Positions 48,944 to 54,009 of a DNA stretch of 64,000 nucleotides are shown here, piece by piece. The DNA is taken from contig JBJKRI010000005.1 in NCBI GenBank assembly GCA_046704725.1, forward strand, positions 1 through 64,000, given 5' to 3'. Every line of letters starts with the position of its first letter. Positions within the stretch are counted from its first letter, which is position 1. Origin of the DNA: Candidatus Woesearchaeota archaeon. GTDB lineage: Archaea; Nanobdellota; Nanobdellia; Woesearchaeales; SKIA01. The notes below the pieces were generated by a model. It saw only the letters and a program-made list of their open reading frames with translations, was not told the origin of the DNA and did not search any database. The translations under genes and the position numbers were made by a program.

Positions 48944-49386
48944 TGCGGGGAACGACCCACCTCCTGTTCGGGCTCGTGCTCGCGGCGGTGTTCACGCAGG
49001 TCCATAGCTTTGCGAACCCGTTGCTCGCTGTCGTCCTCATCCTGCTCGGGAGCCTGTTGCCCGACCTCGACGAGCGGCACAGCACGCTCGGACGGAAAGT
49101 GCCGATCGTGGGCTTCCTCATCAAGCATCGCACCTTCTTCCACAGCCTGCTCTTCCTGGTGGCAGTGACCATCCTCTTGTGGGCGGTCGTGCCGGCGTGG
49201 TACGTCATCGCTTTCGCCGCAGCGGTGCTCGGGCACCTGTTCTTGGACGCGCTCACACCGCAAGGGGTGCGGCCGTTCTGGCCGTCGAAGCTGCGCGTGC
49301 GCGGTTTCGTCAGAACGGGAGGGGTGCTCGAGAAGCTCGTCGCCGCGGCCGCCGTGGTGGCGTTCGTCTGGCTGCTCTTGCGCTAG
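48943..49386 (+). CDS. YdjM-like membrane metal-dependent hydrolase
   Basis: MRGTTHLLFG, GSLLPDLD, HRTFFHS, HLFLDALTPQGV.PFWP. Confidence 0.88.
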   Translation: MRGTTHLLFGLVLAAVFTQVHSFANPLLAVVLILLGSLLPDLDERHSTLGRKVPIVGFLIKHRTFFHSLLFLVAVTILLWAVVPAWYVIAFAAAVLGHLFLDALTPQGVRPFWPSKLRVRGFVRTGGVLEKLVAAAAVVAFVWLLLR

Positions 49387-50210
49387 CGCCACTCCTTGTT
49401 GAGCTGGAGGCGGTTCGTGCGGTTATGCGGGGTCTTCTCGACCACGCCCTTGAGTTCGAGGTTGCGCACGACCTTGCTCATCTTGGACTTGGTATAGCCC
49501 GTGCGCGCGATGAGATCCTTCTGGAGGTCGACTCCCTCGCGGAGCAGCCCGAGGACCTCGCTCTCGTTGCTGGAGAGCGTGCGGTGCAATGGTTTCCTCA
49601 CGGCTCTCTTCTGGCGGCGCTGCAAGACGAGGACGACGCCACCGATGATGATGAGCGCTCCGAGAGCGGATAACAGGATGGCCGGCCAGTCGGTGGACGG
49701 CCCTTGGTAAGTGACAGCGAGCTGCAAGGGCGCGGGGCGGTCCCAGGAGAGCATGATGTTCTGCCCGTCCGTCCGCATGGAATCGGGCGGCGGGATGGCT
49801 CCGGCGGTGCGCGCGAGGACGAACTCGCGCGGCAGGGTGACCGTCACGTTCACTGTGTCCGAAGCGGGTTGCAGGTCAAGCCGCAAGGCGTGCTGGGAGC
49901 CGCTCGTGATGACGAGATTGTCGAAGATGAGGCTGAAGGCGACGGTGTTCTTCCCGGCGACGAGAGGATGCTCGAGGACGAGCGTGCCGTTCCGGATGCT
50001 GTACGGATCCTTGGAGATGACGCTCAACGGTTCATTGGAGAGATTCCAACGGACCTCGTTGTAGCTCTGGTTCGCGTCGATATGCAGGACGACGTCCTCG
50101 CGCACGATATCGTTGGGCGTGAGGGTGATGTGGACGACCGTCTGGGCCGCGCTCGCCAACGGGACGAGCAAAAGCACCAGAAGGAGTGCAGGGACGCGTA
50201 TCATCGACAT
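49383..50210 (-). CDS. Membrane-anchored winged-HTH protein (extracellular domain, TM, MarR-like HTH)
   Basis: Signal peptide, beta-rich domain, TM, then LQKDLIARTGYTKSKMSKVVRNLELKGVVEK. Confidence 0.8.
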   Translation of the reverse strand: MSMIRVPALLLVLLLVPLASAAQTVVHITLTPNDIVREDVVLHIDANQSYNEVRWNLSNEPLSVISKDPYSIRNGTLVLEHPLVAGKNTVAFSLIFDNLVITSGSQHALRLDLQPASDTVNVTVTLPREFVLARTAGAIPPPDSMRTDGQNIMLSWDRPAPLQLAVTYQGPSTDWPAILLSALGALIIIGGVVLVLQRRQKRAVRKPLHRTLSSNESEVLGLLREGVDLQKDLIARTGYTKSKMSKVVRNLELKGVVEKTPHNRTNRLQLNKEWR

Positions 50211-50241: not shown

Positions 50242-51783
50242 CTAGTCGTCATGCCCGCGTCCGTTCGAGGAGCGTCCGTGCGCATGCTGGCTGCCCTGAT
50301 CGCCTGCTTCCCTCTCCGTCCCGAACAGGGTCCGAAGACCGTTCTGGGAGTTGCCGTTCCCGTTGACCGAGGCATTCACAGACTTCTTGGCGAGGCCGGG
50401 GGGAATGTGGTCCTCCTGCTCCGTATTGCGTTGACCGCCCGCGCTGTATGCAGCCGCAGAGTGTTCGGGTGGGGTGTGCTGCACTGTGCGCGATTCGGTC
50501 TCCGTATCATTCTGCTCGGTCTGGTTCACGGCGTCGTCCTCCAAGTGCTTCTTGATGAGCGATGCGCCGTGCTCGGTGATGTCCTGCTGCGAGAGCAGGT
50601 CGGCATCCTGCGAAGGAGAGAGATTGTACTGTTGGAACAAGAGTTCCTTGGGCGTCGGCGTGTGGAAGCCGAAGAAGCCGAGGATCTTCTGGAAGATGCC
50701 CGGCGGCGTCCACTGATAATTGATCATGGCGTTGATGCTCTGGTCGCCGAGCTTGCCCGTCTTGATGAGGCGGTTGAGCACGCCCGGATTGAGCTTGTAG
50801 TGCTCGAGGATGTACGCCAGCTGAGCGTCGGTGATGTTTCCCGCTTCGAGCATCTGCGGGAGCTTCTCGAAGCCCGTGGCGAAACGGCTCATGTTCAGCG
50901 TCTCGTTGGTCTGGTTGCTCGTGGCGTTGATCGCCACGCTGAACGCGACGGTCTTGTTGACGGTCTGGTTTCCGCTGGTCGCCCATGCGGTGAGCGTGTG
51001 GCTGCCGTTGGCGAGGCTGAGCGTCGCCGTGTAGCTGCTGCAGTTCGTGCAGACCGCGGCCGCGCTGCCCGTGTCGATCGCGTAGCTGATGTTCGCGGCA
51101 AGATTCGTGCTGATGTCCACCGGGACTGTACCGTTGTACGTGTTGTTGGTCGGTGCGGCGAGCGTGAGGCTCAGGTTTGTCTCGTTCTGCGTCTGGTTCT
51201 GCGTGGAGTTCGCTACAAGCACGCTGAATGCGACGGTCTTGTTGACTGTCTGGTTCCCGCTGGTCGCCCATGCGGTGAATGTATGGCTCCCGTTCGTGAG
51301 GTTGAGGGATGTGCTGTAGTCGCTGCAGTTCGTGCAGGCGACAGTGGCGTTTGCGCCATCAACAGTGTAGCTGATGTGCGCGTCCCTATCAGTCGTGAGG
51401 TTCATGGGCACAGTGCTATTGTACGTGGCGTTCTCCGGCGAGACGATGGTCAGGTTCAGCGGCTCGATAGTAGAGACGGTGAATCCGACGACGACGGTGG
51501 TGTTGTTCGTGTCGGAGGACGCGTAGAGGATGTACTGGCCGTCGCCGAGATCGAGCGTGTCGCTGAGCGTGCTGCAGTTGGCGCAGCTCGCGTTCCTGAT
51601 GGAGATGTTCCCCTCGAAAAGGGTGTAGGAAAGAGCGGTCTCGTTTCCTTGGGCGTGGATCTGCACGGGGACCGTGCCGTTGTAGGTCTCGTTATTGATG
51701 GGTTGCGTGACGCTGAGCGCCGACGCGCTCGCCACGGCGATGCCGAGGATGAGCGCGTACGCGATGATGTGCGTGATTCTCAT
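50242..51783 (-). CDS. Secreted glycoprotein with three Ig-like repeats
   Basis: Signal MRITHIIAYALILGIAVASASA; 3 x P.N.TYN.TVP...CxNCS...L..G; near-identical NGSHT.TAWATSGNQTVNKTVAFSV pair; many N-glycosylation sequons. Confidence 0.8.
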   Translation of the reverse strand: MRITHIIAYALILGIAVASASALSVTQPINNETYNGTVPVQIHAQGNETALSYTLFEGNISIRNASCANCSTLSDTLDLGDGQYILYASSDTNNTTVVVGFTVSTIEPLNLTIVSPENATYNSTVPMNLTTDRDAHISYTVDGANATVACTNCSDYSTSLNLTNGSHTFTAWATSGNQTVNKTVAFSVLVANSTQNQTQNETNLSLTLAAPTNNTYNGTVPVDISTNLAANISYAIDTGSAAAVCTNCSSYTATLSLANGSHTLTAWATSGNQTVNKTVAFSVAINATSNQTNETLNMSRFATGFEKLPQMLEAGNITDAQLAYILEHYKLNPGVLNRLIKTGKLGDQSINAMINYQWTPPGIFQKILGFFGFHTPTPKELLFQQYNLSPSQDADLLSQQDITEHGASLIKKHLEDDAVNQTEQNDTETESRTVQHTPPEHSAAAYSAGGQRNTEQEDHIPPGLAKKSVNASVNGNGNSQNGLRTLFGTEREAGDQGSQHAHGRSSNGRGHDD

Positions 51784-52044
51784 GCCAGGGGTTATGGGGC
51801 GCGGATATATAGAACGTTCCTGGAAACGGTTGCGCAACCATGAGTGTATAGTGTAACATACGCTTTTTCTCATAGGTGTTGGCGGACACGAACGCTTTAA
51901 ATGACGGACGGGTCAACGAGAATCATTCGCGATACGCGGATACCGCATCGGCGACAGCAACCCCCAACATAGCGACTTCTGCCGGTGCCTTTTATCCTTC
52001 TCGCATAAGATTTATAGTGTACCTATCCACTCGTGGGGAATTCC

Positions 52045-52674
52045 ATGGTAGAACGAGATGATTGGAAGGAAAGGGACTCTGAGGCTGTGCAGAGGTATCT
52101 CTCTGGGGAAGCGCGCGCTTTTACCGAACTGCATGATCGGTATCGGGGACCAATGATCAACTTTGCTTACAGGATCGTCAAGGACAAGGAGCGTGCAGAG
52201 GACCTCGTACAGGAGGCATGGATCCGTATGTACCGTCATATGCATCGTTTCGACCAGAGCAGGCGATTCTCTACGTGGGCGTATGCCATCCTCGCGAACC
52301 CGGGCAAGAACGAGTTGCGTGATCAGGGCCGGAATCCTATCGATCTCATTAGCACCATTGAGACTCCGGGTTGGAGACCAATGGAATGGTCGAATACGAA
52401 GCTTTCCACCGAGCGCACGTACGAGGAGCGTCATCTGGAGGAGGTCGTCGATAAGACGATCAGTCTCCTTCCTGACCATTTCCGTGCAGTATTCTATATG
52501 CGGGAACGCCTCGGCATGACCTACGAGGAAATCCAAGAAGTGCTCGATGTCACTATGGGAACTGTGAAGAGTCGTCTGCACCGAGCGCGGGTCAGGTTCT
52601 CTGAGCTGTTCAAGGTAAACCATCCAGAGGAATACGCGCACCAGGTCGGTAGAACGTACGCAGAGGCCGCCTGA
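52045..52674 (+). CDS. Bacterial-type ECF (RpoE-like) sigma-70 factor
   Basis: Region 2: AFTELHDRY...AEDLVQEAWIRMY...FSTWAYAILAN. Region 4: LPDHFRAVFYMRE..GMTYEEIQEVLDVTMGTVKSRLHRAR. TTTATA at 52011. Confidence 0.9.
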   Translation: MVERDDWKERDSEAVQRYLSGEARAFTELHDRYRGPMINFAYRIVKDKERAEDLVQEAWIRMYRHMHRFDQSRRFSTWAYAILANPGKNELRDQGRNPIDLISTIETPGWRPMEWSNTKLSTERTYEERHLEEVVDKTISLLPDHFRAVFYMRERLGMTYEEIQEVLDVTMGTVKSRLHRARVRFSELFKVNHPEEYAHQVGRTYAEAA

Positions 52675-52728
52675 ACCCACTGGACATCCACGGTCCCGTC
52701 GCTTATAAACCGCTTTTCGCATAGCAGC

Positions 52729-52795
52729 TGTGCTTCCATCTGAAACAAGATGCGAACCGCAAGGTCCGGGAAGACCCGGAAGCAAGGAGGCACAT
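52729..52795 (+). promoter_or_regulatory. Candidate structured 5' leader of the small ssDNA-binding-like gene / radA operon
   Basis: Three internal hairpins enclosed by TGTGCTTCC/GGAGGCACA, which covers the SD; TTATAAA at 52703. Confidence 0.5.
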
Positions 52796-53029
52796 ATGCA
52801 ACCCGAGAAGAAGTTCAAGGCCGGCGCCATCACGGCGACCGTCTGGCGCAACGAGACGACAAAGGACGGCGAGACCGTCACCTACCCGACAATCACGTTT
52901 GAACGCACCTACAAGGACAAGGAAGGAGCGTGGCAGACGACCAACAGCCTGCGCTCCGGCGACCTGCCCAAAGCGGCGCTCGTCCTCAACAAGGCCTACG
53001 AGTACCTCTCACTGGAGGCCGAAGCATAG
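52796..53029 (+). CDS. Small conserved protein, possible PC4/SSB-like nucleic-acid-binding fold
   Basis: [19 protein letters not shown]...[20 protein letters not shown]...DLPKA; GGAGG RBS. Confidence 0.7.
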
Positions 53030-53049
53030 ATAAGCACGGAGGAAAACAC

Positions 53050-54009
53050 ATGACACAGACGATGACGATCCAAGAACCCAGCATCAGCGAACTGCCCGGC
53101 GTGGGCCCCGCGACAGCGGAGAAGCTCGCCAGCACGGGCTATGACACTGTGATGAGCATCGCCGTGGCCACGCCCGGAGAGCTCACGGACGCCAGCGGCG
53201 TCTCCGAAGCGGCAGCGAGGAAGATGATCGGCGCTGCGCGCGACATGCTCGACATGGGATTCATGTCGGGCGACGAGATACTCGCCAAGCGACAGGCCGT
53301 CAACAAGATCAGCGTCGGCGCGAAGAGCTTCGATGCGTTGCTCGGAGGCGGCTTCGAGACGGGGAGCATCACCGAATGCTTCGGGGAGTTCGGCTCTGGC
53401 AAGACGCAGATCGGCCACATCCTCGCGGTGAGCATCCAGAAGGAATTCCCCGGCTGCTACGCCGTCTACATCGACACCGAGAACACGTTCCGCCCCGAGC
53501 GCATCATGGAGCTCGCCGAGGGATTCGGCATCGACCCCGAGGACGCGCTCAAGCACATCAAGGTGGCGAAAGCGTACAACAGTGACCACCAGATGCTCTT
53601 GGCGGAGAAGGTCGAGGGCCTCATCAAGGACGGCTTGGACGTCAAGCTCGTCGTCGTGGACTCATTGACATCGCACTTCCGCGCCGAGTTCGTCGGCCGC
53701 GGCACCTTGGCCGAGCGACAGCAGAAGCTCAACAAGCACATGCACGTCCTGTCCAAGCTCGCGGACGTGCACAACCTGTGCGTCTTCGTGACGAACCAGG
53801 TCATGGCCAAGCCCGACCAGTTCTTCGGCGACCCCACGCACGCGATCGGCGGGCACATCGTGGCTCACGCCTCGACGTTCCGCATCTACCTGCGCAAGGG
53901 ACGCAAGAACAGCCGCGTCGCGAAGCTCATCGACGCCCCGAACCTGCCCGACGGCGAATGCGCGTTTTTCGTGCGTTCAGGAGGGCTCGAGGACATAGAG
54001 GTCTCGTAG
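53050..54009 (+). CDS. radA: DNA repair and recombination protein RadA
   Basis: N-terminal Hh[63 protein letters not shown]. Confidence 0.97.

Follow-up and report, generated by a model that had tools for sequence, protein, structure and literature searches.

The window analyzed in this study, a stretch of 64,000 nucleotides that forms the first 64 kb of a 273.6-kb contig (JBJKRI010000005.1) of a Candidatus Woesearchaeota archaeon, carries a gene for a sigma factor of the extracytoplasmic function (ECF) type, referred to below as the sigma gene. It was confirmed to be a genuine, intact, bacterial-type ECF sigma-70 gene residing in an archaeal chromosome. Comparison with bacterial proteins supports its capture, by horizontal transfer, from a Gemmatimonadota-like bacterium.

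The sigma gene encodes a complete two-domain ECF factor

The following features were assigned to the sigma gene and its surroundings:

52045..52674, + strand: ECF (group 4) sigma-70 family gene, 209 codons plus TGA (open reading frame, Pfam, NCBIfam, PDB and AlphaFold2)
52132..52332, + strand: sigma-2 domain (region 2), aa 30-96 (PF04542, invariant columns)
52333..52446, + strand: sigma-2/sigma-4 linker, aa 97-134, the most diverged part of the protein
52447..52596, + strand: sigma-4 domain (region 4.2 helix-turn-helix), aa 135-184 (PF08281, PF04545)
52033..52035, + strand: alternative in-frame GTG start, judged less likely
52011..52016, + strand: TATA-box-like TTTATA, 34 nt upstream of the ATG

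The open reading frame (ORF) is uninterrupted from ATG 52045 to TGA 52672-52674 and specifies a product of 209 aa. The original prediction, made from the letters of the DNA, had recognized full region 2 and region 4 motifs, and these were borne out by Pfam matches over the respective cut-offs: Sigma70_r2 (PF04542) covers aa 30-96 with an E-value of 1e-18 (67.3 bits; cut-off 24) and Sigma70_r4_2 (PF08281) covers aa 135-184 with an E-value of 1.1e-13 (51 bits; cut-off 25.7). PF04545 also matches the sigma-4 domain (E 5.8e-7), and the Sigma70_ECF model is just cleared (22.6 bits; cut-off 21.1). No match to PF04539 (sigma-3) was found in the protein, which has two domains only and no region 1.1. 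In NCBIfam, the sigma70-ECF superfamily model TIGR02937 scored 97.8 bits (cut-off 42.9). The equivalog models (RpoE, SigW, SigM and others) all remained far below their own cut-offs, RpoE reaching 105.9 bits against 236, so that the sigma protein has no orthologue among the named ECF factors.

Sequence matches in the PDB included 6in7_B (E 1.6e-26) and E. coli sigma-E, 1or7_A (E 4.4e-23). The AlphaFold2 model has a mean predicted local distance difference test (pLDDT) score of 79.7 and comprises two confident helical domains, residues 11-90 and 131-190, with values of 79-94; the linker residues 108-123 lie below 50. A region 2.2-like helix (DLVQEAWIRMYRH) is kept.

The host is an archaeon with archaeal transcription machinery

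The genome is 1.18 Mb in size and is assembled into 8 contigs, all with a GC content of 60-62%; its completeness is 99.69% and its contamination 0.6%. Titles of the best public relatives of its RadA protein read Woesearchaeota, Nanoarchaeia or Nanoarchaeota, the exceptions being some Methanosarcinales bins and one Acidobacteriota entry. One Rpb1-type large subunit (Rpb1_1) is encoded, which is the archaeal A' subunit, and no match over the cut-off to the C-terminal domain of the alpha subunit was found in the genome. Of the TATA-binding protein (TBP) and transcription factor B (TFB), the search covered TBP, which is encoded as well. The host is a DPANN archaeon of Woesearchaeota type that has only an archaeal polymerase and no bacterial core polymerase.

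Origin of the sigma gene

In a search of 5.8 billion proteins, the sole 100% match was the sigma protein itself. The next 44 proteins, of ~210 aa, were 48-52% identical to it, and the named ones are called Gemmatimonadetes, Gemmatimonadota or Longimicrobiales. After these, identity dropped to 35-38% and the named matches were Zixibacteria. A profile scan using one genome per species returned 80 best loci with 44-54% identity, 77 of which are titled Gemmatimonadota, together with one Gammaproteobacteria bin and two entries named 'uncultured bacterium'. The resemblance to Gemmatimonadota RpoE-like proteins given in the original prediction holds, as the nearest relatives make up one conserved Gemmatimonadota ECF family.

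Phylogenetic analysis gave the same picture. In a tree of 63 rows the sigma gene joins 22 proteins of the Gemmatimonadota family with a Shimodaira-Hasegawa-like approximate likelihood ratio test (SH-aLRT) support of 94, while the 19 ECF-like proteins taken from other archaea of the phylum have long branches in other parts of the tree. In a tree of 88 rows its place is again inside the Gemmatimonadota group, also with an SH-aLRT of 94, and here it is drawn as the sister of the full set of 81. The alternative of a nested placement in a 30-row, Longimicrobiales-rich subclade, which holds the most similar relatives and was picked for testing after the tree had been inspected, scored 17.5 log-likelihood units above the free tree, itself the product of a 'quick' search, and was not rejected (approximately unbiased test, p-AU 0.79). 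Neither a sister nor a nested placement is claimed here. The terminal branch of the sigma gene exceeds every Gemmatimonadota branch several-fold (1.33, compared to 0.03-0.33, in the 63-row tree, and 3.12 in the 88-row tree). The step in identity from 48-52% to 35%, together with the Gemmatimonadota grouping in both trees, agrees with the horizontal acquisition from a bacterium that had been proposed initially; the donor itself is not closely sampled.

The codon composition of the sigma gene differs from that of its surroundings. Its GC content is 54.1% and its GC content at third codon positions (GC3) is 0.629, while GC3 in the neighbouring genes (radA, the small ORF before it, the ydjM-like gene and the two minus-strand genes) is 0.835-0.897. 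The excess of A/T-ending codons noted earlier was therefore reproduced, with values of 0.835, 0.870, 0.840 and 0.897 in four neighbours. As the greedy ORF reference set was partly wrong-stranded, a frame-independent position GC was used for the wider comparison: the maximum codon-position GC is at most 0.63 in only 53 of 952 ORF regions, and 5.7% of 630-nt segments are as GC-poor. Genes of the donor family have a median GC3 of 0.84 (range 0.42-0.95), the low values occurring within the Longimicrobiales-rich subclade. By these measures the sigma gene looks recently arrived, with a codon usage that is still foreign and not yet ameliorated.

Separate from this locus, clusters of long ORFs with low GC content (0.42-0.56, compared to the genome mean of 0.61) were observed on three contigs of the genome (C2:21-27 kb, C5:239-258 kb and C6:103-108 kb), and may represent additional islands that were acquired.

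The anti-sigma partner is missing

An ORF with an HxxxCxxC motif (median length 185 aa) was found 3' of the sigma gene in 61 of the 74 Gemmatimonadota loci with at least 450 nt of downstream sequence; one example gave a weak, sub-threshold match to zf-HC2 (E 0.0042). A profile built from the 61 donor anti-sigma ORFs was run against 15,340 six-frame fragments of the archaeal genome. The best E-value was 0.0095 and the HxxxCxxC motif is absent from the two best fragments, so the genome contains no convincing anti-sigma homologue. Directly 3' of the archaeal sigma stop codon lies the conserved promoter of the radA operon rather than an anti-sigma gene, in line with the original prediction that no such gene is adjacent. 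The archaeal sigma copy is thus, as far as this profile reaches, without a cognate anti-sigma factor, having arrived or survived without its partner. No recurrent downstream partner was seen at the 19 other archaeal ECF-like loci either.

Putative promoter and start codon

The hexamer TTTATA at 52011 had been proposed to be an archaeal TATA box. It occurs 15 times in the window, compared to 1.78 copies expected, and none of 100 shuffles reached 15. Upstream of 463 high-confidence genes, TATA-like hexamers peak at positions -31 to -28 (19, 23, 35 and 33 cases), with 3 cases at -34 and 1 case at -22. A Shine-Dalgarno-like motif precedes only 88 of these 463 genes. This combination suggests that mRNAs in this organism are mostly leaderless. 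Counted from the ATG, TTTATA is located at -34, and counted from the GTG, at -22. The ATG is therefore the more likely of the two starts, and the leader would be a few nucleotides long. The spacing is near the genome optimum, and TTTATA is a plausible, predicted host-type promoter of the sigma gene.

Insertion site and flanking genes

The sigma gene is flanked by the following features:

48958..49386, + strand: YdjM-family membrane protein gene (Pfam YdjM, E 1.8e-26), the conserved left flank
49383..50210, - strand: gene for a 275-aa protein that has a signal peptide and one membrane helix and carries a winged helix (DUF7343/MarR_2) at its C-terminus
50242..51873, - strand: gene for an N-glycosylation-rich, 543-aa surface protein, divergent from the sigma gene
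52678..52709, + strand: radA-operon promoter, an CACTGGACA..CACGG element plus a TTATAAA box, starting 4 nt past the sigma stop
52787..54009, + strand: small 80-aa ORF (52787-53029) and radA (53050-54009), the conserved right flank

These flanks are archaeal, as had been stated from the sequence: RadA, encoded downstream, is a Rad51 family protein (E 4.8e-83), 81-88% identical in four same-genus genomes, and the 543-aa protein encoded upstream has 38 N-x-S/T sequons, compared to ~11 expected from its composition. The region between the ydjM-like gene and radA measures ~0.45-0.86 kb in the same-genus genomes G001, G002 and G004 and ~3.3 kb in the window, where the extra DNA holds three genes, those for the 275-aa, 543-aa and sigma proteins; other genus members have different small genes at this spot. 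The radA-operon promoter marks the right limit of the species-specific DNA, and nucleotide homology to G004 is regained from 52671 onward, within the stop codon of the sigma gene.

The possibility that the three genes arrived together as one island was rejected, because the two neighbours have host-typical GC3 and archaeal relatives. The 275-aa winged-helix protein (Pfam DUF7343, E 1.6e-9; GC3 0.870) has relatives in 24 of 40 related genomes and is an archaeal neighbour, not an anti-sigma factor. Relatives of the 543-aa protein (GC3 0.835) occur in 5 of the 40. No tRNA, Rfam family, integrase-like neighbour or flanking direct or inverted repeats were found near the sigma gene. On this comparison of sequences, the sigma gene is best described as a single-gene arrival in a variable intergenic site between the ydjM-like gene and the radA operon.

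Several further features of the flanks were observed. The 543-aa surface-protein gene contains internal repeats of 285 nt. Its true start is probably the internal ATG at 51783, not the annotated one at 51873, since TATATA lies 28 nt upstream of the former on the - strand and a signal-peptide-like segment follows M31. In a distant genome of the order, a relative of the 275-aa protein is adjacent to a relative of the 543-aa protein, the latter corresponding to its C-terminal half (G030:C125:13502-15104; L166, L173), which suggests that the pair is a conserved two-gene archaeal module. The 80-aa ORF directly before radA has an AAGGAGG ribosome-binding site and is conserved in G004 and G005; it was not seen before radA in G001 or G002 and matches nothing in Pfam or PHROGs. 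In the Atlas, the clusters closest to it consist of unnamed proteins from Woesearchaeota and from viruses (score 0.93). The arrangement CACTGGACA..CACGG..TTATAAA is common to all four genus members compared (the window genome, G001, G002 and G004). The CACTGGACA..CACGG part has been kept despite the very different GC content of these genomes, and a regulator of the recombinase operon may bind there.

Sigma genes in related archaea

Of 151 genomes sampled from the same order, 64 have a Sigma70_r2 match, which in 62 of them is over the cut-off. The unpublished genomes G117, G126 and G137 are counted here; without them the figure is 61 of 148. Across the phylum, 21 of 400 other genomes have an ECF-like match to the sigma protein, all at 22-35% identity. 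In one archaeon of the same class (L150; G350:C16), an ECF-like gene is followed on its own strand by a TBP gene that starts 82 nt downstream. The genome studied here carries a second gene of this type:

C2:58021-58842 of genome G000 (L002:1390-2211), + strand: second sigma-like gene, 273 aa, with Sigma70_r2 (E 1.7e-9) and Sigma70_r4 (E 2.3e-8)

Relatives of the second sigma protein, 24-31% identical, occur in 14 of 40 related genomes. Its best bacterial matches (26-30%) come from many phyla and none of its 80 best loci is titled Gemmatimonadota. A Gemmatimonadota origin for both sigma genes was thus not reproduced, the second one having no phylum preference. From its occurrence in the order and the second copy in this genome, the family appears to persist in these archaea.

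Possible roles of the sigma protein

Our tentative proposal, whose chances we place a little short of even, is that the sigma gene is expressed and that its product is a DNA-binding regulator independent of polymerase. The gene would be transcribed by the archaeal TBP/TFB machinery, and the protein would be free-standing, with the sigma-4 helix-turn-helix, and perhaps sigma-2 too, binding sites near archaeal promoters and operating without anti-sigma control. A free-standing regulator is the likeliest function because the cell has no bacterial core polymerase. The proposal is also favoured by the integrity of the gene, its host-type TATA box, the invariant columns that are kept and the apparent persistence of the family in these archaea. 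A precedent is offered by the sigma-4-type helix-turn-helix signatures that the part of the source consulted describes in archaeal LuxR-type proteins (PMC5413776).

Residue conservation was assessed against 81 Gemmatimonadota orthologues, each of which was also scored by leave-one-out. The archaeal sigma protein keeps 41 of the 48 invariant columns (23/26 in sigma-2, 17/18 in sigma-4 and 1/4 in the linker). Among the columns conserved at 95% or more, 61 of 86 (71%) are kept, compared to a leave-one-out range of 90-99% (median 99%) in Gemmatimonadota; in the linker (aa 97-129) the figure is 4 of 11, and at variable columns the protein matches the majority in 23 of 74. In this alignment the domain cores are intact, yet the protein has clearly changed more freely than the sampled orthologues, each and all, and above all so in the linker. 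Judged by eye, ~15 of the 25 substitutions are conservative.

Several observations weigh against a regulatory role. The sigma gene was not found in the four same-genus genomes, and its unameliorated GC3 (0.63, compared to ~0.85) suggests a recent arrival, so the conservation of its residues was perhaps mostly earned in the bacterium and would say little about selection in the archaeon. As the gene is a singleton, with the next best protein at 51% among the 5.8 billion, no ratio of nonsynonymous to synonymous substitution rates (dN/dS) is computable. The 25 of 86 highly conserved positions that are changed, compared to ~10% in the most divergent Gemmatimonadota orthologue, would fit relaxed constraint as well as a new function. 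The TTTATA box lies 3-6 nt further out than the mode for the genome. Finally, no target motif for the sigma protein could be derived from the 80 donor upstream regions: no ECF-type promoter motif is shared among them, and canonical ECF patterns occur in 1-15 loci only. The most widespread 7-mers in these regions (L177-L256), observed ~260 nt upstream of the donor sigma genes, include GGCACGG (15/80 loci) and TGGCACG (10/80), which we take to resemble the -24 element of sigma-54 promoters.

The main alternative, itself quite possible, is that the sigma gene is a recent neutral passenger, a fragment from a co-occurring Gemmatimonadota-like bacterium that sits behind an AT-rich box by chance, has no role and will decay. 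This would fit with its not having been found in the four same-genus genomes or, above 35% identity, in the 400 of the phylum, and with its foreign composition (GC3 0.63; among the lowest 53 of 952 ORF regions by frame-independent position GC). The missing anti-sigma partner, the 25 lost family positions, with the linker having drifted most, and the long terminal branch (1.33 and 3.12) point in the same direction. However, all 209 codons are intact, the invariant columns of both domains are largely kept, many of the substitutions are conservative, and a host-type TATA lies at a near-canonical spacing. The genome, moreover, is only 1.18 Mb in size and sigma genes recur in the order.

It is improbable that the sigma protein works with the archaeal machinery, either through the clamp coiled-coil of the polymerase or through TBP/TFB, as an alternative initiation or specificity factor. 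The retained region 2.2-like helix (DLVQEAWIRMYRH) would suit such a contact, as would the A' subunit, in which the invariant clamp coiled-coil segment is kept, and the TBP gene beside the ECF-like gene of G350 is suggestive. Still, we know of no established case of a sigma factor working with the archaeal initiation machinery. In ECF holoenzymes the linker threads into the polymerase, but the linker is the least conserved part of this protein. Archaeal initiation is described in the part of the source used here as depending on TBP, TFB and transcription factor E (TFE) (PMC7289017). A predicted complex of the sigma protein with A' residues 1-420 scored 0.00 against a mark of 0.32, with controls not folded, and weighs on neither side of the question of binding.

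In line with the second role suggested in the original prediction, the sigma protein could be delivered to a Gemmatimonadota-like host, where it would redirect the host polymerase free of anti-sigma control; we consider this very unlikely. The protein largely retains the motifs by which the donor family binds the core and recognizes promoters, and the donor group is a single bacterial phylum. Nevertheless, both an N-terminal hydrophobic segment and N-x-S/T sequons are lacking in the protein, there is no secretion gene next to it, and no sign of export or of a bacterial partner was found. The second sigma gene shows no Gemmatimonadota affinity, and no bacterial host of the lineage was encountered. 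Taken more broadly, the idea that Woesearchaeota sigma factors dock on the archaeal polymerase or TBP/TFB and define a sigma-dependent promoter class, or that this one reprograms the polymerase of a bacterial partner, is unlikely; if true, either version would overturn the textbook division of initiation into a sigma-based and a TBP/TFB-based kind.

An origin as cargo of an integrated virus or mobile element with its own sigma factor is equally hard to credit. The spot is variable, its content differing between genus members, the sigma protein matches a phage sigma family in PHROGs (phrog_1740, E 5.9e-29), and rpoS-like genes are reported on DPANN viruses and a prophage in the part of the account drawn on here (PMC12647753). 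However, no integrase, tRNA or flanking repeats were found, and the two other species-specific genes have no PHROG match, host-typical GC3 and archaeal relatives. The best phage match among those listed has an identity of 33.5%, and the 69 records that match are all below 60%; the best IMG/VR match among 27 loci is 33% identical, compared to 44-54% for Gemmatimonadota.

An assembly or binning artefact, in which bacterial reads were joined into an archaeal contig, is extremely unlikely: although the genome is a metagenome-style assembly of 8 contigs, the sigma gene lies 52 kb inside a 273.6-kb contig, GC is uniform over the contigs (0.60-0.62), contamination is 0.6%, no sampled bacterium has a copy of more than 54% identity, and, with an archaeal gene within 262 bp upstream (ATG 51783; 172 bp from the annotated ATG 51873) and the radA promoter 4 bp downstream, two chimeric joints would be needed within ~0.9 kb.

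Whichever role applies, the locus is a well-documented single-gene capture between domains and, as such, adds no new principle. The question of what bacterial sigma factors do in archaea without a bacterial polymerase dates from the DPANN report of 2021. Most archaeal sigma copies are too diverged for comparison, but the copy in the window can be matched to a clear family of bacterial orthologues whose partner gene is known, and this makes it a practical test case.

Comparison with known systems

The Gemmatimonadota ECF family (L177-L256 and L008) has the same two-domain architecture as the sigma protein and is 44-54% identical to it over aa 11-190. The archaeal protein is ~17 aa shorter at the N-terminus and ~15 aa longer at the C-terminus. 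Whereas the family is normally accompanied by a downstream anti-sigma gene of the zinc-binding (ZAS, HxxxCxxC) type, the archaeal copy is not, and it has a predicted archaeal promoter in a cell without a bacterial core polymerase. E. coli sigma-E (RpoE; PDB 1or7 and 6jbq) and 6in7_B ('RNA polymerase sigma-H factor') align over the full length, through sigma-2, the linker and sigma-4, but the score far below the RpoE equivalog cut-off shows that the sigma protein is no orthologue of RpoE. It also differs from the rpoS-like genes of DPANN viruses, as far as the source describes them (PMC12647753), in being of the ECF type and in having no viral neighbours or close viral relative. The other sampled archaeal ECF-like genes are at most 35% identical to it and lie elsewhere in the tree.

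The closest precedent is the sigma-70 family (fam00359) reported in DPANN archaea and described there as 'particularly prevalent in Woesearchaeota' (Castelle et al. 2021, Front Microbiol, PMC8204110). According to the parts of that report that we draw on, mis-binning was ruled out, no anti-sigma factors were found and the mechanism was unclear. A full-text literature search found, in the portions of papers that it returned, none testing the function of DPANN sigma genes. The novelty implied by the original prediction was therefore overstated, as such genes without anti-sigma factors had been reported in 2021 (PMC8204110) and Sigma70_r2 is present in 64 of the 151 genomes of the order. The gene described here resembles those of the report, to the extent that they are described in it, in its Woesearchaeota-type genome, the co-encoded TBP, the sigma-70 profile and the lack of an anti-sigma factor, and differs from them in being traceable to one bacterial family and one species-level insertion. 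It is an unusually traceable example of an already reported, unexplained class.

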